64,000 nucleotides of DNA from Eledone cirrhosa (Eukaryota): positions 682,001 to 746,000 of the forward strand of contig OZ024751.1 of NCBI GenBank assembly GCA_964016885.1, given 5' to 3'. Made by a program: the position numbers and the translations under genes. Shown here piece after piece: positions 12,001 through 62,581 of this stretch. The first letter of the stretch is position 1, and the number at the start of each line of letters is the position of its first letter. The notes beneath the pieces were generated by a model. It made no database searches, was not told where the DNA came from, and saw only the letters and a program-made list of their open reading frames with translations.

Positions 12001-15000
12001 TTGGGAGGTTGTATGTCTACAGTATATTGGGAGGTTGTATGTCTACCGTATATTGGGAGGTTGTATGTCTATAGTATATTGGGAGGTTGTATGTCTCCTG
12101 TATTTTGGGAGGTTGTGTGTCTACTGTATATTGGGAGGTTGTATGTCTATTGTATATTGGGAGGTTGTGTCTCTACAGTATATTAGGAGGTTGTATGTCT
12201 ACTGTATATTGGGAGGTTGTGTGTCTACTGTATATTGGGAGGTTGTATGTCTACTGTATATTGGGAGGTTGTATGTCTACTGTATATTGGGAGGTTGTAT
12301 GTCTACAGTATATTGGGAGGTTGTATGTCTACTGTATATTGGGAGGTTGTATGTCTACTGTATATTGGGAGGTTGTGTGTCTACTGTATATTGGGAGGTT
12401 GTATGTCTACTGTATATTGGGAGGTTGTATGTCTACTGTATATTGGGAGGTTGTATGTCTACAGTATATTGGGAGGTTGTATGTCTACTGTATATTGGGA
12501 GGTTGTATGTCTACTGTATATTGGGAGGTTGTGTGTCTACAGTATATTGGGAGGTTGTATGTCTACTGTATATAGGGAGGTTGTATGTCTACTGTATATT
12601 GGGAGGTTGTATGTCTACTGTATATTGGGAGGTTGTATGTCTACTGTATATTGGGAGGTTGTATGTCTACAGTATATTGGGAGGTTGTATGTCTACAGTA
12701 TATTGGGAGGTTGTATGTCTACTGTATATTGGGAGGTTGTATGTCTACAGTATATTGGGAGGTTGTATGTCTACTGTATATTGGGAGGTTGTGTGTCTAC
12801 AGTATATTGGGAGGTTGTATGTCTACTGTATATTGGGAGGTTGTATGTCTACTGTATATTGGGAGGTTGTATGTCTACTGTATATTGGGAGGTTGTATGT
12901 CTACTGTATATTGGGAGGTTGTATGTCTACTGTATATTGGGAGGTTGTGTGTCTACAGTATATTGGGAGGTTGTATGTCTACTGTATATTGGGAGGTTGT
13001 ATGTCTACAGTATATTGGGAGGTTGTATGTCTACAGTATATTGGGAGGTTGTGTGTTTACTGTATATTAGGAGGTTGTGTGTCTACTGTATATTGGGAGG
13101 TTGTATGTCTACAGTATATTGGGAGGTTGTATGTCTACAGTATATTGGGAGGTTGTATGTCTACAGTATATTGGGAGGTTGTGTGTCTACAGTATATTGG
13201 GAGGTTGTATGTCTACAGTATATTGGGAGGTTGTATGTCTACAGTATATTGGGAGGTTGTATGTCTACAGTATATTGGGAGGTTGTACGTCTACAGTATA
13301 TTAGGAGGTTGTATGTCTACAGTATATTAGGAGGTTGTGTGTCTACAGTATATTGGGAGGTTGTATGTCTACAGTATATTGGGAGGTTGTATGTCTACAG
13401 TATATTAGGAGGTTGTATGTCTACAGTATATTGGGAGGTTGTATGTCTACAGTATATTGGGAGGTTGTATGTCTACTGTATATTGGGAGGTTGTATGTCT
13501 ACAGTATATTGGGAGGTTGTATGTCTACTGTATATTGGGAGGTTGTGTGTCTACTGTATATTGGGAGGTTGTATGTCTACAGTATATTGGGAGGTTGTAT
13601 GTCTATTGTATATTGGGAGGTTGTATGTCTACTGTATATTGGGAGGTTGTATGTCTACAGTATATTGGGAGGTTGTATGTCTACTGTATATTGGGAGGTT
13701 GTATGTCTACTGTATATTGGGAGGTTGTATGTCTACTGTATATTGGGAGGTTGTATGTCTACTGTATATTGGGAGGTTGTATGTCTACAGTATATTGGGA
13801 GGTTGTATGTCTACTGTATATTGGGAGGTTGTATGTCTACTGTATATTGGGAGGTTGTATGTCTATTGTATATTGGGAGGTTGTATGTCTACAGTATATT
13901 GGGAGGTTGTGTGTCTACTGTATATTGGGAGGTTGTATGTCTACAGTATATTGTGAGGTTGTGTGTCTACTGTATATTGGGAGGTTGTATGTCTACAGTA
14001 TATTGGGAGGTTGTATGTCTATTGTATATTGGGAAGTTGTATGTCTACAGTATATTGGGAGGTTGTATGTCTACTGTATATTGGGAGGTTGTGTGTCTAT
14101 TGTATATTGGGAGGTTGTGTGTCTACTGTATATTGGGAGGTTGTATGTCTACAGTATATTGGGAGGTTGTGTGTCTACTGTATATTGGGAGGTTCTATGT
14201 CTACACTATATTGGGAGGTTGTATGTCTACAGTATATTGGGAGGTTGTGTGTCTACTGTATATTGGGAGGTTGTATGTCTACAGTATATTGGGAGGTTGT
14301 ATGTCTACTGTATATTGGGAGGTTGTGTGTCTACTGTATATTGGGAGGTTGTATGTCTACAGTATATTGGGAGGTTGTATGTCTACTGTATATTGGGAGG
14401 TTGTATGTCTACAGTATATTGGGAGGTTGTATGTCTACACTATATTGGGAGGTTGTATGTCTACAGTATATTGGGAGGTTGTATGTCTACTGTATATTGG
14501 GAGGTTGTGTGTCTACAGTATATTGGGAGGTTGTATGTCTATAGTATATTGGGAGGTTGTATGTCTATTGTATATTGGGAGGTTGTATGTCTACTGTATA
14601 TTGGGAGGTTGTGTGTCTACTGTATATTGGGAGGTTGTATATCTACTGTATATTGGGAGGTTGTGTGTCTACTGTATATTGGGAGGTTGTATGTCTACAG
14701 TATATTGGGAGGTCGTATGTCTACAGTATATTGGGAGGTTGTATGTCTATTGTATATTGGGAGGTTGTATGTCTACTGTATATTGGGAGGTTGTGTGTCT
14801 ACTGTATATTGGGAGGTTGTGTGTCTACTGTATATTGGGAGGTTGTATGTCTACTGTATATTGGGAGGTTGTATGTCTACTGTATATTGGGAGGTTGTAT
14901 GTCTACAGTATATTGGGAGGTTGTATGTCTACAGTATATTGGGAGGTTGTATATCTACAGTATATTGGGAGGTTGTATGTCTACAGTATATTGGGAGATT

Positions 15001-18000
15001 GTGTGTCTACTGTATATTGGGAGGTTGTATGTCTACAGTATATTGGGAGGTTGTATGTCTACAGTATATTGGGAGGTTGTGTGTCTACTGTATATTGGGA
15101 GGTTGTATGTCTACAGTATATTGGGAGGTTGTATGTCTACAGTATATTGGGAGGTTGTATGTCTACTGTATATTGGGAGGTTGTATGTCTACTGTATATT
15201 GGGAGGTTGTGTGTCTACTGTATATTGGGAGGTTGTATGTCTACTGTATATTGGGAGGTTGTATGTCTACACTATATTGGGAGGTTGTATGTCTACTGTA
15301 TATTGGGAGGTTGTATGTCTACAGTATATTGGGAGGTTGTATGTCTACTGTATATTGGGAGGTTGTATGTCTACTGTATATTGGGAGGTTGTATGTCTAC
15401 ACTATATTGGGAGGTTGTATGTCTACTGTATATTGGGAGGTTGTATGTCTACAGTATATTGGGAGGTTGTGTGTCTACAGTATATTGGGAGGTTGTATGT
15501 CTACAGTATATTGGGAGGTTGTATATCTACAGTATATTGGGAGGTTGTGTGTCTACAGTATATTGGGAGGTTGTATGTCTACTGTATATTGGGAGGTTGT
15601 ATGTCTACTGTATATTGGGAGGTTGTATGTCTACAGTATATTGGGAGGTTGTGTGTCTACAGTATATTGGGAGGTTGTATGTCTACTGTATATTGGGAGG
15701 TTGTGTGTCTACTGTATATTGGGAGGTTGTATGTCTACTGTATATTGGGAGGTTGTATGTCTACAGTATATTGGGAGGTTGTGTGTCTACAGTATATTGG
15801 GAGGTTGTATGTCTACTGTATATTGGGAGGTTGTATGTCTACTGTATATTGGGAGGTTGTATGTCTACTGTATATTGGGAGGTTGTGTGTCTACTGTATA
15901 TTGGGAGGTTGTGTGTCTACTGTATATTGGGAGGTTGTGTGTCTACTGTATATTGGGAGGTTGTATATCTACTGTATATTGGGAGGTTGTGTGTCTACTG
16001 TATATTGGGAGGTTGTATGTCTACTGTATATTGGGAGGTTGTGTGTCTACTGTATATTGGGAGGTTGTATGTCTACTGTATATTGGGAGGTTGTATGTCT
16101 ACTGTATATTGGGAGGTTGTGTGTCTACTGTATATTGGGAGGTTGTATATCTACTGTATATTGGGAGGTTGTGTGTCTACTGTATATTGGGAGGTTGTAT
16201 GTCTACAGTATATTGGGAGGTTGTATGTCTACTGTATATTGGGAGGTTGTATGTCTACTGTATATTGGGAGGTTGTATGTCTACTGTATATTGGGAGGTT
16301 GTGTGTCTACTGTATATTGGGGGGTTGTGTGTCTACTGTATATTGGGAGGTTGTATATCTACTTTATATTGGGAGGTTGTGTGTCTACTGTATATTGGGA
16401 GGTTGTATGTCTACTGTATATTGGGAGGTTGTGTGTCTACTGTATATTGGGAGGTTGTATGTCTACTGTATATTGGGAGGTTGTATGTCTACTGTATATT
16501 GGGAGGTTGTGTGTCTACTGTATATTGGGAGGTTGTATATCTACTGTATATTGGGAGGTTGTGTGTCTACTGTATATTGGGAGGTTGTATGTCTTCTGTA
16601 TATTGGGAGGTTGTGTGTCTACTGTATATTGGGAGGTTGTATGTCTACTGTATATTGGGAGGTTGTATGTCTACTGTATATTGGGAGGTTGTGTGTCTAC
16701 TGTATATTGGGAGGTTGTATATCTACTGTATATTGGGAGGTTGTGTGTCTACTGTATATTGGGAGGTTGTATGTCTACAGTATATTGGGAGCTTGTATGT
16801 CTACTGTATATTGGGAGGTTGTATGTCTACTGTATATTGGGAGGTTGTATGTCTACTGTATATTGGGAGGTTGTGTGTCTACTGTATATTGGGAGGTTGT
16901 GTGTCTACTGTATATTGGGAGGTTGTATATCTACTGTATATTGGGAGGTTGTGTGTCTACTGTATATTGGGAGGTTGTATGTCTACTGTATATTGGGAGA
17001 TTGTGTGTCTACTGTATATTGGGAGGTTGTATGTCTACTGTATATTGGGAGGTTGTATGTCTACTGTATATTGGGAGGTTGTGTGTCTACTGTATATTGG
17101 GAGGTTGTATATCTACTGTATATTGGGAGGTTGTGTGTCTACTGTATATTGGGAGGTTGTATGTCTACTGTATATTGGGAGGTTGTATGTCTACAGTATA
17201 TTGGGAGGTTGTGTGTCTACTGTATATTGGGAGGTTGTATGTCTACAGTATATTGGGAGGTTGTGTGTCTACTGTATATTGGGAGGTTGTGTGTCTACTG
17301 TATATTGGGAGGTTGTATGTCTACTGTATATTGGGAGGTTGTATGTCTACTGTATATTGGGAGGTTGTATGTCTACAGTATATTGGGAGGTTGTGTGTCT
17401 ACTGTATATTGGGAGGTTGTGTGTCTACTGTATATTGGGAGGTATATCTACTGTATATTGGGAGGTTGTGTGTCTACTGTATATTGGGAGGTTGTATGTC
17501 TACTGTATATTGGGAGGTTGTATGTCTACAGTATATTGGGAGGTTGTGTGTCTACAGTATATTGGGAGGTTGTATGTCTACTGTATATTGGGAGGTTGTA
17601 TGTCTACAGTATATTGGGAGGTTGTATGTCTACAGTATATTGGGAGGTTGTGTGTCTACTGTATATTGGGAGGTTGTGTGTCTACTGTATATTGGGAGGT
17701 TGTATGTCTACTGTATATTGGGAGGTTGTATGTCTACTGTATATTGGGAGGTTGTATGTCTACTGTATATTGGGAGGTTGTATGTCTACTGTATATTGGG
17801 AGGTTGTATGTCTACTGTATATTGGGAGGTTGTGTGTCTACTGTATATTGGGAGGTTGTATATCTACTGTATATTGGGAGGTTGTGTGTCTACTGTATAT
17901 TGGGAGGTTGTATGTCTACTGTATATTGGGAGGTTGTATGTCTACAGTATATTGGGAGGTTGTGTGTCTACTGTATATTGGGAGGTTGTATGTCTACAGT

Positions 18001-19215
18001 ATATTGGGAGGTTGTATGTCTACTGTATATTGGGAGGTTGTGTGTCTACAGTATATTGGGAGGTTGTATGTCTACAGTATATTGGGAGGTTGTATGTCTA
18101 CTGTATATTGGGAGGTTGTGTGTCTACTGTATATTGGGAGGTTGTATGTCTACTGTATATTGGGAGGTTGTATGTCTACTGTATATTGGGAGGTTGTATG
18201 TCTACTGTATATTGGGAGGTTGTATGTCTATTGTATATTGGGAGGTTGTATGTCTACTGTATATTGGGAGGTTGTATGTCTACTGTATATTGGGAGGTTG
18301 TATGTCTATTGTATATTGGGAGGTTGTATGTCTACAGTATATTGGGAGGTTGTATGTCTACTGTATATTGGGAGGTTGTATGTCTACAGTATATTGGGAG
18401 GTTGTATGTCTACAGTATATTGGGAGGTTGTATGTCTACAGTATATTGGGAGGTTGTATGTCTACTGTATATTGGGAGGTTGTGTGTCTACTGTATATTG
18501 GGAGGTTGTATGTCTACTGTATATTGGGAGGTTGTATGTCTACTGTATATTGGGAGGTTGGGTGTCTACTGTATATTGGGAGGTTGGGTGTCTACTGTAT
18601 ATTGGGAGGTTGTATGTCTACTGTATATTGGGAGGTTGTATGTCTACTGTATATTGGGAGGTTGTATGTCTACTGTATATTGGGAGGTTGTATGTCTACA
18701 GTATATTGGGAGGTTGTATGTCTATTGTATATTGGGAGGTTGTATGTCTACTGTATATTGGGAGGTTGTATGTCTATTGTATATTGGGAGGTTGTATGTC
18801 TACTGTATATTGGGAGGTTGTATGTCTACTGTATATTGGGAGGTTGTATGTCTACTGTATATTGGGAGGTTGTATGTCTACAGTATTTTGGGAGGTTGTA
18901 TGTCTATTGTATATTGGGAGGTTGTATGTCTACTGTATATTGGGAGGTTGTATGTCTACTGTATATTGGGAGCTTGTATGTCTACTGTATATTGGGAGGT
19001 TGTATGTCTACAGTATATTGGGAGGTTGTATGTCTACTGTATATTGGGAGGTTGTATGTCTACTGTATATTGGGAGGTTGTATGTCTACTGTATATTGGG
19101 AGGTTGTATGTCTACAGTATATTGGGAGGTTGTATGTCTACAGTATATTGGGAGGTTGTATGTCTATAGTATATTGGGAGGTTGTATGTCTACAGTATAT
19201 TGGGAGTTTGTGTGT
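1..19215. repeat. 26-bp tandem satellite, about 739 units, consensus GGGAGGTTGT(A/G)TGTCTAC(T/A)GTATATT; continues past the left window edge
   Basis: Unit read directly. The 26-bp register is the same at base 1 and at about 17,440; a 3-bp deletion occurs near 17443; the array ends at tgggagtttgtgtgtc. Confidence 0.99.
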
Positions 19216-19230
19216 CATATATCTATATTA

Positions 19231-28640: not shown

Positions 28641-30207
28641 TATTTGATGTCTAGGTGTATGATATCTAGGTGTATTTGATATCTAGGTATATTTGATATC
28701 TAGGTGTATTTGATATCTAGGTATATTTGATATCTAGGTGTATGATATCTAGGTGTATTTGATATCTAGGTATATTTGATATCTAGGTATATTTGATATC
28801 TAGGTATATTTGATATCTAGGTGTATGATGTCTAGGTGTATTTGATATCTAGGTATATTTGATATCTAGGTATATTTGATATCTAGGTGTATGATGTCTA
28901 GGTGTATTTGATGTCTAGGTGTATTTGATGTCTAGGTGTATTTGATGTCTAGGTGTATTTGATATCTAGGTATATTTGATATCTAGATGTATTTGATATC
29001 TAGGTATATTTGATATCTAGGTATATTTGATATCTAGGTGTATTTGATATCTAGGTGTATTTGATATCTAGGTGTATTTGATATCTAGGTATATTTGATA
29101 TCTAGATGTATTTGATATCTAGGTGTATTTGATATCTAGGTGTATTTGATATCTAGGTATATTTGATATCTAGATGTATTTGATATCTAGGTGTATTTGA
29201 TATCTAGATGTATTTGATATCTAGGTGTATTTGATATCTAGGTGTATGATATCTAGGTGTATTTGATATCTAGGTATATTTGATATCTAGGTGTATTTGA
29301 TATCTAGGTATATTTGATATCTAGGTGTATTTGATATCTAGGTGTATTTGATATCTAGGTATATTTGATATCTAGGTGTATTTGATATCTAGGTGTATTT
29401 GATATCTAGATGTATTTGATATCTAGATGTATTTGATATCTAGATGTATTTGATATCTAGGTGTATTTGATGTCTAGATGTATTTGATATCTAGGTATAT
29501 TTGATATCTAGATGTATTTGATATCTAGCTGTATTTGATATCTAGGTGTATTTGATATCTAGATGTATTTGATATCTAGGTATATTTGATATCTAGGTGT
29601 ATTTGATATCTAGGTATATTTGATATCTAGATGTATTTGATATCTAGGTATATAATTGTTTAACCCATGCTAGCGTGGAAGATGGACGTTAAACGAAGAT
29701 GATGATGATAATTATTTCTACTTTTGGCACAAGGTCAGCAATTACCCCAGTACATTACTGGTGCCTTATTTTATCGACCCCGTAAGGATGAAAGACAAAG
29801 TTAACCTCGGCAGGATTTGAACTCAGACTATAAAGGGTCGTAACTCTATACTACAAAGCATGGCGTCCGACTCTCTATCGATACTGGCAGTCCACCGCCC
29901 ATATCTAGGTATATGATATCTAGGTATATGATATCTAGGTATATATGATATTTAGGTATATGATATTTAGGTATATGATATTTAGGTATATAATATCTAG
30001 GTATATAATATCTAGGTGTATGATATCTAGGTATATGATATCTAGGAGTATTTGATATCTAGATGTGTTTGATATCTAGGTGTATTTGATAACTAGGTGT
30101 ATTTGATAACTAGGTGTATGATATATAGGTATATGATATCTGTACATTTGAGGTCTAGATGTATTTGATATCAAGGTATATGATGTCTCGGTGTATTTGA
30201 TATTTAA
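28641..30207. repeat. 17-bp minisatellite GATATCTAGGT(G/A)TATTT with 15-bp variant, split by retroposon insertions at about 29655-29900
   Basis: Units read directly; the left block is mostly 17-mers, the right block has many 15-mers. Confidence 0.95.
29709..29900 (-). mobile_element. Nin/Deu-domain-like SINE inserted in the minisatellite, next to a short RTE-type tail (29664-29708, +)
   Basis: Matches the reverse complement of 50748-50938. Confidence 0.85.
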
Positions 30208-36044: not shown

Positions 36045-38420
36045 TGTAATATTATGGAGAGTACTCAACGTAATGCAACTCACCCGTCTTCGTTTGTGTA
36101 GTTGGTGGTGCGAGTACGGAGTTAATTATTATAAAATAACAGGAGGCTGGACTGGTATAAATCCTTGAAATGTTTATTATACCATGATGACTTCACTGAC
36201 CGGGTTCTGTATGAATCCGGTGATATCATCAGGTATTCGAAATATATACAAAGGAATATAACAGATAAAATCCATGGGGCTGAAAATCAGAGACAAGAGG
36301 ACGACCGACTATTTAGCAGCTTCTACCTCGAGTGTTGATTATTAAGTCTACTTATGACCATCTGGTGAGGGGGCGTAAGCTTATAATGTGCTACTACCTC
36401 CCCGTCAAAGAGAAAAGGTCATGCCACAATCAGGCTGACAGGGTGTAAATGCATTAATTATTCATAGTTCAAAATAAATAATAATTAAGAAATTTAGAAG
36501 TTAACTAAAAATTATGTATAGAAAGATACAGGGTGGTATATATGGATATATATTAGGTATTAGTGATACAGTATACTTTAGGTAAATGATAACCGTTATA
36601 ATTTTATTTAATAAATTTTGGCGTGTTACAGTGAAATACATATATGTATATAAGAAAAACAATAATAAATGCATGGATAATTCAGAGTTCAAAATAAGGT
36701 CTATAATAATTTATAGTTTGTATATTTGCTCTATATTTGAATCATGGATATAAAAATGCAGTAGGTATATTTAAAAACGTAGAAAATATAATTACATACA
36801 TATTATAAATAAGAGATCAAAAACGCATGAGAGATTCAGAGTTAGAAATAAGTTCCGTAAAAATGTATGAGTTGGATATTAAACAAAAATTTAAAACTTA
36901 GGAAGATAAAGATAGAGAAATAAAGAAATAATGGTATGGATCAAAGTTAATAATATTATGTTATGTATATCAATGTTCCGGCATGTTATTGAACAAGTGT
37001 CTTTCATTCGAGCGTTATTTCTTCTATAGATAGTTATAAGATAATGCAATATTAAAGGCCATTAATGTTTTTCGTCTGACAACCAAGTTTTTAATGGTTT
37101 AGTGTTTCTCTCTCTTTTTCTCTCGTTTTGTGGGAGGCTAAAAATGTGGACGTAGTTTTATGGAGGCAACTAGAGAATAATTCACTTTTTTTGTTAATTA
37201 GGGTCTCATAGTTATTAATAATCAACAGGGTCCCCATTGTACAGAGCACGAAGTTATTTGATATACTAGAGTTGCGGTAAACTCCACAGTTCTGAAGTTT
37301 TGTCCAAAGAATGGAGTATTTTAAATTCCTCTCCAGATGACTGATTTAGTTCTAGTTCTTATCCTCGATTTATTTGGCGTATGGGTGTTTGAATTATAAT
37401 TATTAGAGTTTCTCTTATATATGTTATTATTTTTATTAAGATTAATACTTGGATTATTATTATCTACATATTCTATATTATTCATATATCCTGCTCTTTT
37501 TAATGCGTTTATTAATTCGTTTTTGCACACTATTTACTATAGCTTTTTTTTACAGATTTAGGGTGATTGGAATGTTTACTAATATAGTTTCAGTTTTCAT
37601 TGGGCTTATGAAAAAGGTAATAGAAGCCAGTGTTTAAGTTAAAGGTAACGTCTAGGAAATTAACTATTTTGGTACCATTTTCTACTTCTAACTTAAGGTT
37701 GTACATTTTAAAGAATTCTATTATACTTTTCTTTACTCTAGTTAGTTCTATATTGTTGTGTTTGACCACGGTAAATAAAATGTCGTCCCTATATAAACCA
37801 CCGGTAATCTCTGGCAGTTTTCTATTTATCATATTTAATATGAAAATTCCCAGAAGATCTATGATTTGCGCGGAATCTGATGCCCCCATAGTGATATCAA
37901 AGTTTTTATCTCTATCTGAGCGGGTCCAATATTCGTTGTGTGAAGTTAATAAGAATTCTTCTGGCTGTTAGTATTATATCGATTTCATCCGTGGTTATAT
38001 CAGTATGCTTATAAGCATATGAAAGAGCCTTATTTAGAAGGTTAGGTGTTATGGAAGAATAGTAGCTAGTAATGTCCATCTGGATGAATTTATGGTTTTT
38101 CTTTTCTTATCTTCTATAGAAGATAAGAAAAGAAAAACCATAAATTCGTGTACCATTCTATGACTTCGTGTGTATCTTTCCACAAGCACAAATTAGATCT
38201 CAATTTAAGAGTGGGTAATATTCTATCTATGATGTTTTTACTGATTACTCCAATATCCGATTTCGATGGAGCAATCAGTCTAACTGGCATCTCTTCCTCA
38301 AAGTTTCTTTTGTGATCAAAAGAATTTTATTAATATTTGTATTTTAATATTAATAACTCTGGAAAATTATTTGCCGTAGAGTGGTTCCAATCTACTGTAA
38401 AACTCATTCTTTGATATACT
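36045..38420 (-). mobile_element. Degenerate Penelope-like retroelement (RT plus 3' region)
   Basis: FIQMDITSYYSSI, MGASDSAQIIDLLG, GLYRDD and VNFLDVTFNL motifs typical of PLE RT; hammerhead-like remnant at the distal end. Confidence 0.85.
36179..36236 (-). ncRNA. Degenerate hammerhead-like motif at the end of the Penelope-like element
   Basis: ATAC CTGATGA..CCGG..CCGG..GAAG TCATCATG GTAT then AATAAAC; GAAG instead of GAAA. Confidence 0.35.
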
Positions 38421-38455
38421 CATTGAATCTTGTTTAACTCTTTAATATATATATT

Positions 38456-40766: not shown

Positions 40767-40802
<36 letters not shown>

Positions 40803-40828
40803 TGAAATAAATAACATAAGGCAATTAT

Positions 40829-40886
40829 TCCATTTACAAGTGGTTTCTTAAAAGCAAAAAATTTTGCTTTCAATCATCAGAATGAA
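40829..40886 (-). ncRNA. Minimal type I hammerhead ribozyme
   Basis: TTCATT CTGATGA TTGAAAGCAAAA TT TTTTGCTTTTAA GAAA CCACTTG TA AATGGA. Confidence 0.75.
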
Positions 40887-43588: not shown

Positions 43589-44081
43589 TTTTATATATAT
43601 GTTTATATATTTATGTTTATATATTTATGTTATATATATGTTATATATATATGTTTATATATATATATATTTATTTATATATATGTTTATATATATATAT
43701 ATTTATTTATATATATGTTTATATATATATATTATATATTTATATATATGTTTATATATATATTTTTATATATATATATTATATATTTATATATATGTTT
43801 ATATATATATATGTTTATATATATTTATATATATTTATATATATATATATTTATATATATGTTTATATATATATATGTTTATATATATTTATATATATTT
43901 ATATATATATATATTTATATATATTGGAATAAATGCTCTGAAATAGCGATATATATGTGAATATAGACATAGAATATTCGAAAATATTCTGTATGTTTAT
44001 AATAAACATTTTGAAGACCTAATCGCTATAGAATAGAATACGTCACGTATTACAATTAGATTCTCGATAAAAGCAAGGGAA

Positions 44082-44124
44082 GTAATCTACGCGTTTCATT
44101 CTTATTAGAAATCTTCAGGACTAC
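44082..44124 (-). ncRNA. Minimal type I hammerhead ribozyme, tandem copy 1
   Basis: GTAGTC CTGAAGA T TTCT AATA AGAA T GAAA CGCG TA GATTAC on the minus strand. Confidence 0.85.
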
Positions 44125-44391
44125 ATATCCAGTGCTTTTATCGAGAATGACACAGCTAGAGACTTATAGAATACTTAGCTGTGTACAGGAACTGGTTTGA
44201 AAGAGCGGTTGCCGGTCCGGCAGAAATTAGAAATTGGAATAAATGCTCTGAAATAGCGATATATATGTGAATATAGACATAGAATATTCGAAAATATTCT
44301 GTATGTTTATAATAAACATTTTGAAGACCTAATCGCTATAGAATAGAATACGTCACGTATTACAATTAGATTCTCGATAAAAGCAAGGGAA

Positions 44392-44434
44392 GTAATCTAC
44401 GCGTTTCATTCTTATTAGAAATCTTCAGGACTAC
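44392..44434 (-). ncRNA. Minimal type I hammerhead ribozyme, tandem copy 2
   Basis: Identical motif 310 bp from copy 1. Confidence 0.85.
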
Positions 44435-44731
44435 ATATCCAGTGCTTTTATCGAGAATGACACAGCTAGAGACTTATAGAATACTTAGCTGTGTACAGGA
44501 ACTGGTTTGAAAGAGCGGTTGCCGGTCCGGCAGAAATTAGAAATTGGAATAAATGCTCTGAAATAGCGATATATATGTGAATATAGACATAGAATATTCG
44601 AAAATAAGAGCATTTATTCCAATTTCTAATTTCTGCCGGACCGGCAACCGCTCTTTCAAACCAGTTCCTGTACACAGCTAAGTATTCTATAAGTCTCTAG
44701 CTGTGTCATTCTCGATAAAAGCACTGGATAT

Positions 44732-44774
44732 GTAGTCCTGAAGATTTCTAATAAGAATGAAACGCGTAGATTAC
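44732..44774 (+). ncRNA. Minimal type I hammerhead ribozyme, inverted copy
   Basis: Same motif on the + strand; stem I extended by a 16-bp helix 44708-44723 / 44781-44796; predicted cut after GUA at 44768. Confidence 0.85.
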
Positions 44775-44954
44775 TTCCCTTGCTTTTATCGAGAATCTAA
44801 TTGTAATACGTGACGTATTCTATTCTATAGCGATTAGGTCTTCAAAATGTTTATTATAAACATACAGAATATTTTCGAATATTCTATGTCTATATTCATT
44901 TATATATATGTTTATATATATATGTTTATATATTTATATATATATTTATATATA

Positions 44955-46260: not shown

Positions 46261-46899
46261 ATGTTTATATATATATCTTTATATATTTATATATATATTT
46301 ATATATATGTTTATATATATATGTTTATATATATTTATATATATATATATTTATATATATGTTTATATATATATGTTTATATATATATGTTTATATATTT
46401 ATATATATATATTTATATATATATATTTATATATATATATATTTATATATATATATTTATATATATATATATTTATATATATATATTTATATATATTTAT
46501 ATATATATATTTATATATATATATATTTATATATATATATATTTATATTGATTATACACAAGTTTAACTAGTGCAAAGTTGCAAGTTCAGTGTAAGTTTG
46601 AAGGCCTAGAAAGGTAAAGTCACTTTAGATGGAATTTGCATAATTATATGATCAGTTGTATGAGAAGTTGCTTGCGTACAAGCGGCGGTTCTGTAAAATT
46701 ACCCAAAGATCAGTCTGGCAGTGTGGAAGAATATAGCGCAGTAAGCACAGCTGAATACATGTAGTGCAGCTCCCTGGAGGGAGAACAAAGGCTTGATGAT
46801 GGTGTTCCAAGTTGTTTAATGGTAAGTCCACCGCCAGTAAGTCGGGTCAATGTGTGGTGTTGGGAGCCTCAGGTGTAATGGTGGTTAATTGGTTGTCGG

Positions 46900-47941
46900 G
46901 GTCCATCTATAGAAAGATTGTTGTAGTCTATGGCCGCAATTGATGACAGTTTCAGCCCGACTATTTATGAGGTCCTGGGGTGCTTGCACTATATAGTATA
47001 GTTCCATTAGGCAGAGTTGGTAGCTTTTTAAAAAATTGTATGGTGTTGTTTGGTTCACAATTTCCTAATAAGTGATGAAGCTAATGTTAGAGTCATTTAA
47101 CTGGGTGATATAGTTAGCGAGGGAGGTAGAGTATCTAAACTGCTTATTCCTAAAAGAGTGGAGGTGTGCTCGAAATCTGGTCTTGAACGACCCAGAGGTA
47201 GCTCCTATGTAAGACTTGACACTATTATGACTAGTAACCGTACATCTATAGATAATGTTTTTAGTCAGGCAGTAGCCTCGGAGTGGACAGTTTGCAGGAT
47301 TACGACAATTGCAATGTTTATTACGGTCACCTCTAAGGTGAGTGTTGGTATTAATTGTAATATTATCGCCATCACCATAGCTACTATTATTGTAGTTGGC
47401 ATTATTATAGCTATGAACACGTGAAGTGGTGCCATGCCCACCTCTCATGTTATAGCGTCTTCTACAGCCATTGTTAGAGCTGTGAAGGTTACTAACCCTG
47501 TCGTCAGTCTCACTACTGGTGCAGCACTTAGTTTCTAGTGTTGTGCTATTGTGTAAACCGCTGCTAATACCTATCCTGGTTTCTACCATCGTTATCAAGT
47601 GGGGCGAAAGAATTGCTAAGGTTAACCGAGTTGTCATATTCCCTAAAATTCTCATTACTAGGATGTTGTATACTAGTGATTTTGTTTTTACTTATTGCTA
47701 TGAGGTCGGCTAGATTAGGTGTAGTAGAATAGGAGATTTTTACGTTATTCTTATTGAGGATTTTTCTGTATCTGTGGTTAGGTGGAAAGTTCTTCTCTAA
47801 GGCGCCGAAGAAGATTCTGGGTAAATTGGAGGCCACACTCCGAGAGTAGAGGGGATAGAACCATAGGACATTACGGTGGCGGTTATGCGTAGTTCTGGGG
47901 TTACTATGGCCGTTGTTGCCGAGGTGGGTGTCCGAAAGCAC
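46900..47941 (-). mobile_element. Penelope-like element fragment: linker plus GIY-YIG endonuclease
   Basis: RNVLWFYPLYS..KISYSTTPN, CNCRNPANCPLRGYC, IIYRCTV..YIGATSGSFKTRFRAH; frameshifted. Confidence 0.9.
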
Positions 47942-49428
47942 CGAAATATGGCTTTCTCAAGAATCTGTCATTTGTGTATCGAGGAAATTTTTTATATAAT
48001 TAACTGTCTATATAACTGTTTATATAATTAACTATTAATTTAAAAACAGAATTATTCAGTTCTTGCAGACATTGCCAAAAATCCACTTTCCGAAGTATTT
48101 TTAATCTATAATATTCATTACACTTGACTACATCTTATACACCTTTAAAATGATCCTATTATTTACTGAGGTTTTCTTTAAAAAACGTAAATTTTTTAAA
48201 TGATCTTCCTTCTTAAATTTAGTATTTTTACCAATTGATATTCTTTTCCTAATGATAATCTTCTTAATCTATTTTTTTAGATTTATATATATTTTTTTTA
48301 GATTGATACTTTTTAATTGACATTCTGAAAGATATCCTCTTTACGATAGTTCTTCTCTAGACTTATCTAATAATACATTTTTCCTCTCTTTAATCTTCAA
48401 ACTTTTCACACATCTTTTGACGTAGATAATATATAATAGAAATTCTCATCCTTGAAAAACATGTAATATAAAGTACCTTATAATCTCATATAAAATAATA
48501 TATAATTTTCTCTAATGGTTAGCAAATCATATTGGAGTTATCTTTTCCTTTACAATTGAGCAAACATAGACATGATAACATGTATGATAAATTATATAAT
48601 TTCGCTAAATTAATAATGTTCTGAAAATATTTACAATGTTGGATGAAAATATTTGAATCTACAAATTGTTCTTCTCTTACAATTTGAACTACGTCTTTTT
48701 CTTAAACATTTATGTAAAATGTAAAATAACATCCTTCATAACTCATATTAGAAATGTAAACAATTAATAAGTGTTTTATTTCTATAAAATCACCAATAAT
48801 ACTTATACTTGCACACTTATTAATCTATATAGATATTTATATACTTACAACCTGTTGTAATGTAATAAGAAAAAATGTATTTACAACCATAATTCTTCAT
48901 ATAATCTAATTGATTATATATACAATATTATAACTCATAATATAGCTAAATATATATTTTTTAAATTCTGGAATCATATTCCACCATTCCTACAAACAGT
49001 TAATTCTTTTTTACAAGCTTTTCTTTCGTTCTCTTTCTTCTTCCTACACATACATATATATCCTAATAATTATTTAAATCTACCTAGCGTTTAATATAAC
49101 GTTTTATTTTATACCTCAACCTCATTTGCATATTCATCTTAATAATTTGAAATATTTGACTTTTCCTCTCTTTCCCCTCTTTCCTTTTACTGTCCAGGAA
49201 AAACTTGAACCGTTAATTTCTCTTGATATTTCGCTCCTTATAACAGTCTTTCCTCTCTCTGTTTGGTTGAGCACATCTCTTTGAGTGGTTTTGGGATGCC
49301 ATTTCTAGCACCTCGTCCCTCAGATACCACTGGTTCACTGTCCCATGCATGCTGTCACATCTCTCTGCCGCGGGTTGCAAGATGGTTATCTTATATTTTC
49401 TTAGAGTTGTCTGGAATGTATTTGCCTT

Positions 49429-49886: not shown

Positions 49887-49947
49887 TATTCTATTATATA
49901 TATTTCAAGGGTACCAAAACTTTGGTACGCTCTCATCAGATAAAATA
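49887..49947 (-). ncRNA. Minimal type I hammerhead ribozyme
   Basis: TATTTTAT CTGATGA GAGCGTACCAAA GT TTTGGTACCCTT GAAA TATATA TA ATAGAATA. Confidence 0.75.
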
Positions 49948-50747
49948 CAAAATTTGTTTTATAAATAGTGACAAACCCTTAACAGTTTAGGTTCCGTTTG
50001 GATAGTGAGAGGATGGAGGAAAAAAGAGGAAGAAAGGAAAAAGAACAAATATTTCAAATTATTTTGATGAATATGCAAATGAAGTTGAAGCGTAGGGCTG
50101 AAAAAAATCGTTATTTTTAGACGTTAGGTAGATTTAAATAATTATTAGGACATATAAAGAAGAAAGAGAAGTTTATATTAATATTAGAGTGTACGGCTAT
50201 GTTTGCTTCATTATAAAGGAAAAGATAACTCCAATATTAGTTCTTAAACTATTAACGTTAGATTTGTCGTAATATAATAAGATAAAATGTACTTACAACC
50301 ATAATTCCTCATATAATCTAATAATGATTATATATAAAATATTATAACTGATGCTTTAGTTATATTTTAAATTTCTTGATTGATATTCTACCACTTCAAC
50401 AATATTTTAATTTTTAACGTTTTAATTTATAAATTTACGTACACTCTAATATTAATATAAGCTTCTCTTTCTTCTTTGTCTTTGTGTGTATTTGTTCTCA
50501 TCGCTCCACATAACGACGTGTTATCCTTGCTTTTTTCTGTTCATTGCCAAGGAACGTCTTCACGAACCAAAGTATCATCTTTCTGTTTTCCTTTGGTTGC
50601 AACGTTTTTCGAAATATTTACTTCTGCGTTCACAGAATGATTTTTTTTAGTTTCAGAAGATCCCCTTAAAAGTGAAAGCAGCGATTCTTTGCTTAAACTT
50701 TATCTGTTATTTTAATAAATATATATTTATTGTGTGCATTATATATA

Positions 50748-53377: not shown

Positions 53378-53568
53378 TAGTTATGTAATAAATAACAGAT
53401 AATTATTTCATTTACCAGTGGTTTCTTGAGGACAGATATTTATATCTGTTTTCAGTCATCAGAAAGACTTACTATTCTTTCTGATGACTGAAGACAGACA
53501 TAAATATCTGTCCTCAAGAAACCACTGGTAAATGAAATAATTATCTTATGTTGTTTATTACATAGCTA
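53378..53568. ncRNA. Palindrome carrying two divergent hammerheads (53408-53467 minus, 53476-53535 plus)
   Basis: TCTTT CTGATGA CTGAAGACAGA..TCTGTCCTCAA GAAA CCACTGG TA AATGA in each arm; 8-nt spacer. Confidence 0.7.
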
Positions 53569-56699: not shown

Positions 56700-59600
56700 C
56701 TTGTTAAATTATGCCCAAAATACGGGGATCTTATTTAAACCTTAACCTTCTCGCTAACTACCCAATATCCCTCCCACCCTCCCCCACGCACCACCATTAT
56801 TACGTGGGCCAATCATAAGTCAGAGGCCTATCCTAACGCTTACCTGGTTGCCTTTCGATATGATGGATGGACTACGGAATTCTGGAGAGTTGAAAAGAAA
56901 AATCTGGACGCTCAGTGACAATGCCAAAGATAAAGACAAATTCACCTCATGGACAAGAATGCAAGGACTCCTCCTCTTTGTTTCGGCCGCGGATGGCTAA
57001 CATAACCCCCCCCCCCCCGCTCCCACCCTCCAAACACAATCCAAAACTTCAGAGTTCGTACCATGAATGTAGGTACCTTAAAGGGTCGCTCTAACGAGGT
57101 TGTAGAAATGCTTGAACGTAAGGAGGTCGATGTTTGTTGTATTCAAGAGACCAGGTGGAGGGGTGGGTCTGCTAGATTCATCGTGGGTAAAGAACGATGC
57201 TATAAGCTTTTCTGGGTGGGAAATGACAATGGGCTGGGTGGAGTAGGAATCATGGTAGCAGAAAAGTGGGCAGATAAGATAATAGACGTAAATAGAGTGA
57301 ACGACAGAATAATTAAAATAAGACTTGTCCTCAATAGAACTACGGTGACAGTAATATCTGTGTACGCACCCCAATCTGGACTGCCCGGCACTATAAAAGA
57401 CAGATTCTATGAGACACTGATGCTCACTACCTCCTAAATAACCGACAGTGACTATATAATTATTGCTGGCGACCTAAATGGTCACGTTGGACAACATTGT
57501 GACGGCTATGACGGAATCCATTGAGGCTATGGGTTTGGTACTAGAAATGAGGAAGGCTCCAGAATCCTGGAATTCTGTGACGCAAATAACCTAACTATCT
57601 GTAACACTAACTTCAAAAAACGAGACAATCACTTGATCACCTACAGATCGGGGTAACACACAAGCCAGGTAGATTATATCCTTACCAGGAGACGTGACAG
57701 AGTGTCTGTTGTAAACACTAAATCCCTCCCCCATGAAGAATGCACGTCTCAACATAGACTCATAATTAGCGACCTCATAGTCAGGACGAGACGTATTCGA
57801 CAATAGAAGAGGACTATCCTCAGGAGAAAAATATGGAAATTAAAGGACCCCATAGCCAGTCATAAATTTAAAAGCATATTACTTGATGCTTTTGATAGTA
57901 AGGAAGAGCAATTAGAGTCGTACAATATAGAGGAACAGTGGGAATTCCTGAAAGCTAACCTGCTGAAGGCGACAGACGAAACCTGTGGCTGGAGCAGGCC
58001 TATAGGCAGGAGGAGAGTAACTTGTTGGGGAACAGTAAGGTGGAGAAGTCAATCAAGGCCAAAAAGCAGGCTTGGAAAGCATGGCGGGATGGGGGAAGTA
58101 GAGAAGACTATCAAGTGGCCAGGAGGGAAGCTAGGAGACAAGTGTACTTCGCAAGAAGGGAAGCAGAGGAAAGAAAGTTCAAGCATGTTCTACAACGCGA
58201 GGATCAAAAACGTGAGGTGTTCAGGATTGCTAGGCAATGTGTCAAGGAAAACAGTGATATTGTCGGGGAGAAGTGTGTCCTAAATGATGATGGTGTACTT
58301 GCCATCACTGACGCTGATAAGAAGGTAGCTTGGAAGTGTCACTACGAAAGGCTACTAAATGAGGAAAATAATTGGGAGAAAGACAGTCTCCCCCACATCG
58401 ACCCAATAGAGGGACCAGCAGTGCAAGTTGAAGGTAGTATAGTAAGTAAGGCGATCAAAGACATGAAGACGTGCAAGGCGGCCGGGCCTTCGGAAATAGT
58501 TGCCGAAATGCTGAAAGCATCTGGAACGGTGGGACACACTATGGTCACCCGGATAGTAAACCAAGTCATACAGAATGGAGTCGTTCCGAAGGACTGGCGC
58601 AGCAGCATCATCATTAACTGCTACAAGGGTAAAGGTGATGCCCTAGATAGGGGAAACTATAGATGCATTAAATTAATTGACCAGGTCATGAAGGTCACAG
58701 AAAAAGTAATAGCGCAACTAATCAGAGAGCGAATTGATCTAGACGAAATGCAGTTTGGGTTTGTGTCATGTAAAAGTACAACAGACGCTCTTTTCATTGT
58801 ACGACAACTACAGGAGAAGTACCTAGCTAAAAGTAAACCCCTATACTTAGCTTTTGTTGACTTGGAGAAAGCCTTTGACAGAGTCCCTCACTCCATTATC
58901 TGGTGGGCCCTTAGAAAACTAGGTGTTGATGAATGGCTTGTGAGAGCTATACAAGCCATGTATAAAGAAACAGTCAGCAAGGTTAAAATTAACAACGAAT
59001 ATAGTGAAGAGTTTAGCGTAAAAGTTGGTGTTCATCAGGGCTCCGTCCTTAGCCCCCTACTATTTATTATTGCCCTTCAGGCTATAACAGAGGAGTTCAA
59101 GACCGGCTGACCATGGGAACTCTTACATGCAGATGATCTAACGCTCATAGCTGAATCAATGGCTGAACTAGAGAAGAAATTCCAAACATGGAAGCATGGC
59201 CTAGAATCAAAAGGCCTTAAAGTTAACTTGTCTAAGACTAAAGTTCTAGTTTGTAGGAAGGAAAATAGGGCACCGGTCCCATCTGGGAAATGGCCATGCT
59301 CAGTGTGTAGGAAAGGAGTAGGTAGAAACTCCATTTTATGTCCCAAATGCAAAGTATGGGTACATAAATGATGTAGTGGGATCACAGGTAAGCTAACTAA
59401 GAATATAGATTTTATATGTGGCCGGTGCTCTGGTGCAATAAGTAGCAGCAAGTGCCCACAGAATACTAACTCATTCCATTGCACAGATGGTTCTATAGAA
59501 ATAGTGGACAGCTTCCGTTACCTGGGTGATAAAATCAGCAGTGGGGGAGGGTGCTCTGAAAGTACAGTAGCTAGAGTCAGAACGGGATGGAAAAAGTTCA

Positions 59601-60479
59601 GGGAGCTTATACCACTATTGGCCGCTAAAGGGTTCTCTCTAAAAATGAAAGGCAGGCTGTATGATGCCTGCATACCAACAGCAATGTTACATGGCAGTGA
59701 GACCTGGGCATTGTGTGCAGAGGATATACGCAGACTGGAGAGAAACGAAGCTTGCATGCTCCACTGGATGTGTAATAGTAATATACGTGAACGGCAAAGC
59801 ATAAACGAACTAAGGGGGAAATTAGAAATAAGGGGGATTAGATGTTGTTTACTCAAGAGAAGACTACGTTGGTATGGTCACGTGATGCGCATGAAAGACG
59901 TCAGCTGTATAAAAACGTGCAGGGCAATAAAAATAGATGGTAGCCACGGAGTAGGCAGACCCAGAAAAACCTGGGACGACTTGATAAACTCCGACCTCAC
60001 ACACTTACACCTCTCCAAGACAATGTTACTGGACCGAGAGCTTTGGCGCTACACAGTAATAGAGAAGACCCGCCTTACCTAAGTACAAAGTGAGACCTAC
60101 TACAGTCAGTAGGCACCTCTAACAAAATACACCCCCGTCCAACTACCCCCACCTCATCCACACCACCCCCACCCCATCCACACCACCCCTTTCAATGTAA
60201 AGTTATGTTGGTGTCACAACATCCTAAACAAATGAGGTCGTGTAGGTGTCACGACAAAAAAACACACAGTCCACGCTGTAATGTGGCCGTGTAGGTAACA
60301 CTGTAAAAACCTCCCACACTGTAAATGTGGTTGGTGTTAGGAAGGGCATCCAGCCGTAGAAAACCCGCCAGACAGTCCTATGCGAGCAAGACAACCACTC
60401 TTGTCTCAAGTGGGAAAACTCCTGTCCAAACCCATGCAAGCGTGGAATATGGACGTTAAACGATGATGATGATGATGAT
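56700..60479 (+). mobile_element. Near full-length RTE LINE family A, inactivated by stops and frameshifts
   Basis: APE from 57063 (CIQETRW), RT 58022-59110, finger, C-terminus ending at 60082, 3' UTR, (GAT)n. The 5' boundary is approximate. Confidence 0.95.
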
Positions 60480-60480
60480 A

Positions 60481-60838
60481 AGTGCTGAGAAGAAAGATGC
60501 ATGGAAGAGCCATTATGATAGATTACGAAATGAGGAGACTGCATGGGAAGAAGAGACCCTACCCCAAGTAGACCCTATAGAGCGGCCAGCAGTACAAGTC
60601 AACAGCAGCGTAGTAAGTAAGGCAATCAAAGATATGAAGACGGGGAAGGCAACCGGCCCATCGGATATGGCTGCCGAGATGTTGAAGGCATCTGGGTCGG
60701 TAGGTCACACCATAACAACACGTATTGTTAACCAGGTAATATCCCAGTCCTATCATCTCATTTCTACAGCTGAGTAAACTGGAGCAATGTGAAATAAAGT
60801 GTCTTCCTCAAGGAAACAACACATCACCCGGTCTGAGA
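60481..60838. mobile_element. Short RTE fragment (+, 60481-60741) joined to a SINE fragment (-, 60742-60838)
   Basis: AWKSHYDRL..MKTGKATGP; reverse complement of the CORE-like SINE centre. Confidence 0.8.
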
Positions 60839-60899
60839 AATGTATATGTTTATATATATGTATATATAATATATATGTTTATATATATATAATGTATAT

Positions 60900-60930
<31 letters not shown>

Positions 60931-60974
60931 ATGACATATATATATAATTATATGTTTATATATATATATATATA

Positions 60975-61004
<30 letters not shown>

Positions 61005-61005
<1 letters not shown>

Positions 61006-62581
61006 CATCATCATCATCATCATCAACGTTTAACGTCCGTGTTCCACGCTTGCATGGGTTTGGACGGGGGTAGTCCCACTTGAGGCAAGAGTGATTGTCT
61101 TGCTCGCATAGGACTGTCTGGCAGGTTTTCTACAGTTGGATGCCCTTCCTAACACCAACCACATTTACAGTGTGGGTCTGGGAGGTTTTTACCGTGTTGC
61201 CTACACGGCCACATTACAGCGTGGACTGTGTGTTTTTTTGTCGTGACACCTACACGATCTCATTTGTTTCGGCCTCGATGGCGCGTCACCAACATAACTT
61301 TACATAGAACGGGGTGGTGTGGATGGGGTGGGGGTGGTGGTGGTGGGACGGGGTGTATTTTGTTAGAGATGCCTACTGGCTGGAGTAGGTTTTACTATAT
61401 ATTTAGGTAAGGCGGGTCTTCTCTGTTACTGAGTACCGCCAAAGGTCTCGGTCCAGTGACATTGTCTTGGAGAGGTGTAAGTGTGTGATGTCGGAGTTTA
61501 TCAGCTCGTCCCAGGTTTTTCTAGGTCTGCCTATTCCGTGACTACCGTCTATCTTTATTGCCCTGCACTTTGTTATACAGCTATCGACTTTCATGCGCAT
61601 CACGTGTCCATACCAACGTAGCCTTCTCTCGAGTAAACAACATCTGATCCCTCTTATCTCTAATTTTTTCCTTAGTTCGTTTATGCTTTGCCGTTCACGT
61701 ATATTACTGTTACACATCCAGCGGAGCATGCAAGCTTCGTTCCTCTCTAGTCTGCGTATATCCTCTGCACACAATGCCCAGGTCTCACTGCCATGCAGCA
61801 TTGCTGTTCGTATGCAGGCATCGTACAACCTGCCTTTCATTTTTAGTGAGAACCCTTTAGCAGCTAATAGTGGTATAAGCTCTCTGAACTTTTTCCAACC
61901 AGTTCTGACTCTAGCTACAGTACTTTCAGAGCACCCTCCCCCACTGCTGATTTTATCGCCCAGGTAACGGAAGCTGTCCACTATTTCTATAGAACCCTCT
62001 GCGCAATTGAAAGAGCTAGTATTTTGTGGGCACTTGCTGTTACTTATTGCACCAGAGCACCGGCCACATGTAAAATCTATGTTCTTAGTTAGCTTACCTG
62101 TGATCCCACTACATCTTTTATGCACCCATACTTTGCATTTAGGACATAAAATGGAGTTTCTACCTACGCCTTTCCTACACACCGAGCACGACCATTTCCC
62201 AGAAGGGACCGCCGCCTTGTTTTCTTTCCTACAAACTAGTACTTTGGTCTTAGCCAGGTTAATTTTAAGTCCTTTTGACTCTAGGGCGTGCTTCCATGTT
62301 TGGAATTTCTTCTCTAGCTCGGCCATTGATTCCGCTATGAGTGTCAGGTCGTCTGCGTATAGGAGTTCCCATGGGCAGCCTGTCTTGAACTCCTCTGTTA
62401 TAGCCTGAAGGGCAATAATAAATAGTAGTGGGCTGAGAACAGCCCTGATGGACGCCAACTTTTACGCTAAACTCTTCACTATATTCGTTGTTAATTCTAA
62501 CCTTGGTGACTGTTTCTTTATACATGGCTTGTATAGCCCTCACAAGCCATTCGTCAACGCCTAGTTTTCTAAGAGCCCACC

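Follow-up and report, generated by a model that had tools for sequence, protein, structure and literature searches.

The analysis of a 64-kb stretch of DNA (64,000 nucleotides, hereafter the window) outlined a locus that is best explained, with a probability of roughly three in four, as one young insertion of an ORF-less 310-bp repeat, likely carried into a (TA)n tract by a Penelope-like element (PLE) that acted in trans through its reverse transcriptase (RT) and GIY-YIG endonuclease. The involvement of a PLE is indicated by the inverted arm of the array, by a 35-nt tail and by the (TA)n target, which together provide better evidence than was available to the first-pass annotation of this DNA when it suggested mobilisation by a Penelope RT. 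Judged by sequence criteria, the unit is likely a member of the non-LTR retrozymes, taken here as non-autonomous PLE derivatives; the array resembles a PLE insertion in its layout, yet it is not an autonomous PLE.

Tandem Repeats Finder detected a direct array at 43923-44606 with a period of 310, 2.2 copies and 100% matches. The two complete units are the same letter for letter and the 64-nt partial copy corresponds to the start of the unit, in agreement with the first-pass annotation, which had described two identical 310-bp units and a partial third over 43923-44898. The direct array accounts for that interval up to 44606, and the remaining segment (44607-44898), missed in the earlier description, is an exact reverse complement of 44268-44559 (292 nt, 100% identity; Table 1). 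The join between the arms is blunt and head-to-head, presents no microhomology and leaves a spacing of 47 nt between them. Read in the ribozyme sense, the arms stand head to head, and degenerate (TA)n sequence borders the outward-facing 3' end of each. These ends lie at unit phase 1 in the direct arm and at phase 36 in the inverted one, an offset of 35 nt that places them 165 and 130 nt, respectively, downstream of the predicted cleavage site (phase 166). The 5' ends lie at phases 64 and 17, and the break in the direct arm falls inside a predicted 8-bp hairpin of the unit. Three predicted cleavage sites are crossed unbroken, two by the 684-nt arm and one by the 292-nt arm, and the unit-to-unit junction is the same each of the three times that it is crossed.

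Table 1. Features of the insertion and neighbouring PLE remnants (window positions; ribozymes, cleavage sites and target-site duplication are predictions or candidates).
Feature	Position	Strand	Remarks
PLE RT remnant	37300..38440	-	YRDD motif; broken (stops, frameshifts)
Degenerate (TA)n array	43592..43922	none	left side of insertion target
Candidate target-site duplication, left copy	43914..43922	+	9 bp (12 bp counting junction bases)
35-nt tail	43923..43957	-	RNA-sense 3' end of direct arm; absent from inverted arm
Unit 1	43923..44232	-	310 bp, non-coding
Type I hammerhead 1	44060..44148	-	core starts 44118, predicted cut after 44088; 16-bp helix at distal end
Unit 2	44233..44542	-	identical to unit 1
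Type I hammerhead 2	44370..44458	-	core starts 44428, predicted cut after 44398
Partial third unit	44543..44606	-	64 nt, 5'-truncated end of direct arm
Inverted 5'-truncated arm	44607..44898	+	292 nt
Type I hammerhead 3	44708..44796	+	in inverted arm; core 44738-44744, predicted cut after 44768
Right-hand remainder of (TA)n target	44899..44934	none	begins with candidate duplication 44899-44907
PLE thumb, CxCX5C linker and GIY-YIG remnant	46890..47960	-	broken; Hydra-clade features

The right flank of the inverted arm consists of a short TA tract followed by a LINE end. An ATGTTT variant is found ten times in the left (TA)n array and twice in the right-hand remainder, and also in two of nine other TA arrays tested. 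The two copies of the candidate target-site duplication (TSD) are the same, giving a match of 9-12 bp where retrozymes are described with TSDs of more than 4 bp when these are present; the match lies in low-complexity DNA and has a chance of about 3-7% of arising given its frequency in the left array. The tail-less end of the insertion falls at the unit's own AUAUAUAU run, and the junction in the window has two mismatches there.

The unit has a GC content of 0.34 and codes for no protein: in a concatemer read on both strands, the longest ATG-initiated ORF spans 30 aa and the longest stop-free stretch 59 aa, which bears out its earlier description as non-coding. No recognisable ORF start or end was found within the 310 bp, and the array locus contains no ORF for RT plus GIY-YIG of the kind that an autonomous PLE would carry. 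Searches of the unit for Pol III A and B boxes, and of its RNA sense for a poly(A) signal, were likewise negative; two T4 runs are present in the RNA-sense unit.

Each of the three predicted ribozymes follows the order GUAGUC (5' arm of helix I), CUGAAGA, UUCU/AGAA, GAAA, CGCG, UA, cut site and GAUUAC. Helix I comprises 6 bp (GUAGUC/GAUUAC) and helix II 4 bp, with outer helices of 3 bp and 16 bp; helix III is the palindromic ACGCGU and the site is GUA. In the third copy, the helix II region maps to 44745-44758 and the palindrome to 44762-44767. The motif had been named a minimal type I hammerhead, and its CUGAAGA/GAAA core, GUA site, ACGCGU palindrome and 16-bp helix were all recovered, but the word minimal does not apply. 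The minimal hammerheads of PLEs are defined by a helix II of 7-8 bp, a helix I of 4-5 bp and a poorly defined loop 1, a combination that the unit does not present, whereas a helix I of 6 bp, a helix II of 4 bp and a tiny palindromic helix III are termed the "canonical" metazoan type in the available part of PMC4209133.

A scan for type I cores and stems over positions 19301-64000 of the window identified five cores, three of which are the array copies, and the same scan returned no cores in any of 100 block shuffles. Folding z-scores were -4.8 for the linear unit, -4.4 for the unit as a circle (58% paired) and -5.2 for the ribozyme region. In the window copy, a U-U mismatch occupies the base of helix II, whose pair probabilities are only about 0.16. 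The search with Rfam hammerhead models that the first-pass annotation had recommended returned no hits at the gathering score in the whole 64-kb window. The best ribozyme match was to HH9, whose 17 bits fall far short of the cut-off of 52 (E 0.79 and 0.058), mainly due to the missing helix III. Rfam matches to MIR841 and MIR8562 were rejected, as they reflect only the long perfect hairpin.

Helix III is predicted to form poorly within one copy, and the folding predictions support a dimer-type ribozyme, as had been proposed. If two copies swap their helix I arms and share a 6-bp helix, the result is a nested double hammerhead, predicted to be 7-16 kcal/mol more stable than two active-like single hammerheads. 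It is the predicted minimum-energy fold in one of four direct-arm contexts and lies 6.4-6.7 kcal/mol above the minimum in the other three. In the accessible text of the respective sources, axolotl ribozymes of similar shape cleave efficiently only as dimers (PMC7229834), the minimal ribozymes of PLEs cleave weakly (PMC4209133) and one of nine predicted Xenopus dimers cleaved in vitro (bioRxiv 10.64898/2026.07.22.740005).

The further proposal that a minus-strand transcript would be cut into the monomer was not sustained by the predictions for a transcript entering at the right flank. In a minus-strand read-through that includes the inverted arm, all 292 nt are predicted to pair with a direct unit, and the double hammerhead lies 104 kcal/mol above the predicted minimum; in a transcript of the opposite (+) strand, the third ribozyme is predicted to be fully masked. 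The 292-bp hairpin expected in read-through RNA probably makes the locus an unpromising source of further monomers, and their release from it would require an internal transcription start.

These features were compared with those of known systems. Non-LTR retrozymes, reported in Metazoa by Cervera and de la Pena in 2020 (PMC7229834) and by Li, Clavereau and Pollet in 2026 (bioRxiv 10.64898/2026.07.22.740005), are defined in the available part of the former as short tandem units of about 150-450 bp with a GC content below 50%. The preprint, as far as its accessible text goes, argues that animal retrozymes are non-autonomous PLE derivatives and applies a rule of two consecutive hammerhead units. 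The resemblance to a retrozyme that had been noted before is substantiated by the size of 310 bp, the GC content of 34%, the lack of ORFs and the type I hammerheads in consecutive units (first and second cores in Table 1). Unlike the metazoan non-LTR retrozymes of these sources, the unit constitutes a new sequence family, its helix I is extended by a 16-bp helix, and its locus carries an inverted arm and a tail. A limited search of the literature, confined to main text, found no retrozyme with an inverted arm and tail.

The layout of the locus has close parallels among PLEs. According to the parts of PMC8557442 available, PLE insertions consist of a partial tandem whose 5' end bears an inverted, 5'-truncated copy; they have a 30-40 bp tail at one end and are biased towards microsatellites. 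The locus likewise presents a partial tandem with an inverted 5'-truncated copy in that position, a 35-nt tail at one end only and (TA)n on both sides, and 10 contigs of sequencing run X1 also lead from the unit into TA runs. For Pen2a_Av and Pen3a, the accessible text of PMC3846280 records two direct and one inverted terminal repeat (pLTR), a TSD of 8-9 bp and a 31-bp tail, and it also describes the mobilisation of PLEs in trans. In PAc, two internal RT start sites, both downstream of the hammerhead, bracket the tail, and hammerhead cleavage is dispensable for insertion (PMC11167929, in the part available). The locus shares with EN+ PLE insertions two direct and one inverted terminal unit set head to head, a tail of 30-40 nt at one end, an AT-rich or (TA)n target and a predicted hammerhead upstream of the proposed RT starts; its candidate TSD, if real, would agree in size as well (about 9 bp). 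It differs from them in having no ORF between or beside the units, its whole repeating body amounting to 310 bp.

Two further comparisons delimit the affinities of the unit. Hydra-clade PLEs target (TA)n and carry hammerheads, as stated in section 11 of PMC8557442, and elements of this type have left CxCX5C remnants at 47 kb in the window; no sequence link between the unit and any Hydra element was found, and this clade would be its putative partner. The non-autonomous Chlamys elements, such as MRC1, are also ORF-less PLE derivatives with pLTRs and head-to-tail multicopy insertions but, going by the accessible text of PMC8557442, they are green-algal and belong to a group generally without canonical hammerheads.

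A plausible route to the observed insertion would begin with the transcription of a tandem source array. In this RNA, neighbouring hammerheads are predicted to swap helix I arms, share the 6-bp ACGCGU helix III and cleave behind GUA, after which the 310-nt monomer may be circularised by a host ligase. Both strands of (TA)n DNA would then be nicked by a PLE protein, for which the Hydra clade is the most plausible origin, and cDNA synthesis would begin at two internal positions that lie 130 and 165 nt beyond the cleavage site, about 35 nt from each other. Joining of a 684-nt and a 292-nt cDNA head to head would leave a one-sided tail, yielding the product seen here. Given that the arms cross cleavage sites unbroken, the RNA template was likely an uncut multimer (about 55%) or a re-ligated circle (about 45%). 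A cut linear monomer was rejected as template, because no arm ends at the cleavage site (phases 64 and 17 versus 166). Both 5' ends lie just past the start site of the other arm, which, as a weak hint noticed after the fact, fits two primers on one template. At the tail-less end, priming may be aided if the AUAUAUAU run base-pairs with the (TA)n target once this is nicked.

Beyond the window, the unit was found in 20 of 24 listed sequencing runs, none of them on record as RNA, with word shares of 0.67-1.00 under 18 organism labels and in 17 studies; four of the 24 (X1, X9, X20 and X23) were inspected at the level of contigs or reads. Run X1 (organism A, share 1.00) is presumed to derive from the same organism, and possibly from the source sample, so it is not independent. 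It contains 611 contigs with the unit, in single pieces at depths of 15 to 3950 (depth not being equivalent to copy number), and the unit is hence an abundant, variable multi-copy family in this run, as retrozymes are. Five sites vary at 5% or more in X1. Four map within the ribozyme (N7, the helix II base and two loop II positions) and the fifth, 44267, to the tail-less end of the unit; none falls in the invariant core, helix I or helix III. At N7, 80% by depth corresponds to the usual CUGAUGA, and the variant at the helix II base (17%) gives an A-U pair. All three ribozymes of the locus present one haplotype, including letters that are in the minority in X1 by summed depth at 44424 (20%) and 44414 (32%), a uniformity that a single template or a homogeneous source array would be expected to produce. 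Among the loose ends shown for X1 (6 of 31), an exit from the unit into a TA run at 44259 is common to ten contigs and an exit at 44228 is seen in one, both near the two outer ends seen in the window; the inversion junction is not among the X1 joints listed.

Runs X9 and X20 yielded one 340-nt contig each (depth 14 and 18) that returns after 310 and closes as an unbranched 310 circle. These contigs show three and four differences, all among the X1 variants, and their dominant haplotypes differ from that of X1. Their return at 310, together with the lack of any indel at the 5% listing threshold, suggests that the 310 period is family-wide. Next to none of the unit's words occur in runs X21 and X22, which share their sample with X20. 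In X23 (organism B, another sample, raw reads), no reads were found where 2-9 were expected, assuming one fixed two-unit locus in a genome of 1-5 Gb, a zero too weak to count. Runs X4-X20, dated 2020-2025, contain the unit at shares of 0.67-0.87 under 17 further labels, and one of these runs has only 4 million letters of contigs. Exact-pattern scans for the unit returned no stretches in the metagenome, viral and prokaryote genome contig collections.

The alternative that survives best, although unlikely, is that the units are pLTRs of a coding PLE and that the locus is a heavily 5'-truncated stump rather than a separate non-autonomous family. Opposite-strand hammerhead pairs 100-700 bp apart have been ascribed to truncated PLEs (PMC4209133) and axolotl PLEs carry tandem hammerheads (PMC7229834), to judge from the available parts of both sources, but the repeated crossing of one and the same unit-to-unit junction and the lack of a recognisable ORF start or end in the unit are at odds with a stump. 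An ORF link could be missed in the X1 junction contigs, which are short and for which 6 of 31 loose ends are shown, yet the share of X1 contigs running on for at least 20 unlike letters is 0, and those of X9 and X20 close without branching. Such stumps of another family do occur within the window, at 53378-53568; this pair and the hammerheads with cores at 40880 and 49939 have a long helix II, unlike the retrozyme-type helices of the unit.

The near-identical copies of the unit (98-99%) detected under 17 labels besides organism A are likelier to represent trace DNA (contamination, diet or a cobiont) or close relatives than horizontal spread. Horizontal transfer was not accepted, only X9 and X20 having been examined of the 17 non-A runs and X21 and X22 being near-empty; the zero of X23, itself too weak as a test, was also weighed. 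Contamination from the X1 pool alone agrees poorly with the presence, in X9 and X20, of letters found as minor variants in X1 (P of 0.003 or less if summed depth is equated with allele share, which does not strictly hold). Real presence of the unit in other organisms is possible, and an assembler could have cut a low-copy tandem from its (TA)n flanks. A bolder reading holds that the 310-nt unit is a free ribozyme circle, copied in rolling-circle fashion by a Hydra-type Penelope and recently spread across unrelated animals, with two start sites used at once so that both arms come from one circle. It would explain the copies at 98-99% identity under 18 labels, the 310 circles of X9 and X20 and the haplotypes foreign to X1, but taken as a whole we consider it decidedly improbable.

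Very little probability is assigned to an origin at the DNA level, without an RNA step, in which a satellite-type repeat would have been duplicated and inverted, the hammerhead would be a passenger from an old pLTR and the rearrangement would result from unequal exchange or from a template switch during repair in the unstable TA tract. Local tandem growth by unequal crossover has been proposed in the accessible text of the 2026 preprint (bioRxiv 10.64898/2026.07.22.740005), satellites and TA tracts abound in the window, and the RNA step of the preferred route is itself a proposal. These processes would nonetheless not predict the 35-nt end offset and the head-to-head polarity, the recurrent X1 ends into TA runs or a variation that spares the catalytic core, and the inversion join is devoid of microhomology. 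Finally, an assembly or fold-back artefact behind the inverted arm or the perfect copy identity is considered scarcely credible: all copies are 100% identical and the inversion junction has no independent sighting among the X1 joints listed, yet a fold-back would run on into the mirror image of the left flank, whereas the inverted arm stops at phase 36 and gives way to different DNA (the short TA tract and LINE end), and older inverted pairs with arm identities of 80-96% are present at 49 kb and 53 kb.

The PLE remnants that the first-pass annotation had reported at 37-38 kb and 47 kb do exist, but they are broken and have no significant sequence in common with the unit, so that they do not identify its mobiliser; their order is also wrong for one single element. 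The 47-kb remnant has its GIY-YIG at the C-terminus, and its CxCX5C linker and a CxH after a conserved N match the Hydra clade. The linker between its thumb and endonuclease (47320-47700, minus strand) is long and N/S/T-rich, reminiscent of the N-rich inserts described in the available part of PMC3846280. Pfam searches at E 0.1 returned no families for the three remnant pieces, and their assignment is based on motifs and on ESM Atlas leads (GIY-YIG on 12% of members in the top-ranked cluster and RVT_1 on 32% in one ranked lower). When the unit was compared with the remnants and the other hammerhead elements by sensitive blastn, all matches were AT-rich (best E 0.017); a match of 14 nt at 36168-36181 was attributed to chance. 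The remnants attest to the past presence of a suitable type of enzyme in the genome, not to its having moved the unit.

Several other elements were noted in the window, where inverted PLE-type stumps are common. A second hammerhead family forms a small head-to-head palindrome at 53378-53568 (cores at 53462, minus strand, and 53481, plus strand), with four base differences and one 3-nt gap between the arms over about 93 nt; its right arm ends in (TA)n and it looks like a PLE end stump. A single type I hammerhead at 40786-40886 (minus strand, core 40880, helix II of 12 bp) is 75-80% like this 53-kb family; some 35 nt beyond its cut site it gives way to (TA)n. An older inverted pair (49055-49185 and 50017-50156, 80% identity) adjoins a TA tract, and near it the core at 49939 (minus strand) belongs to a type I hammerhead with an AUA site and a palindromic UAUAUA helix III. 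A degenerate hammerhead-like motif that the scan missed lies at 36165-36250 (minus strand), separated by about 1.1 kb from the 37-kb RT remnant upstream of it. Satellites comprise a 26-bp repeat at 2-19216 (about 739 copies, 95% matches, strong GC skew), which runs off the window start, and a 17-bp repeat at 28641-29653 (60 copies). Many LINE-type RT fragments, with a PHD-like finger, were observed at 57959-62461 and also at 25.3, 41.4, 45.5 and 54.2 kb, together with a large LINE-type inverted pair (59045-60174 and 61311-62440, 90%) and DDE transposase fragments at 51-52 kb and 63 kb.

Taken together, the PLE-type insertion of an ORF-less retrozyme unit is favoured by the footprint at the locus, the recurrent ends in X1, the family-wide period of 310, the lack of ORFs and the spared core, as well as by the Hydra-type remnants in the window, the Hydra clade being one that targets (TA)n and carries hammerheads. 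It is weakened by the lack of an autonomous partner among the elements found, with window remnants devoid of significant similarity to the unit; by the sub-threshold Rfam scores, the helix II U-U mismatch and a double hammerhead that is the minimum in one of four contexts; by the low-complexity TSD, an inversion joint that is not among the listed X1 joints and the missing Pol III box; and by the single cleaving dimer of nine in the preprint and the insertion of PAc without need for cleavage.

The retrozyme class and its link to PLEs are already known. In the portions of the earlier literature available, this link consists of co-occurrence, shared hammerheads and pLTR similarity, and both the enzyme and the form of the template (circle versus linear multimer) are left open. 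What is new here is the sequence family and, as far as the limited literature search goes, the PLE-type footprint on an ORF-less retrozyme unit. If the copies under other labels are truly genomic, they would mean that a non-coding ribozyme element has recently spread by horizontal transfer in a striking manner. With its physical PLE footprint and its membership of a young, abundant and ORF-less family, the locus provides a handle on how animal retrozymes move.
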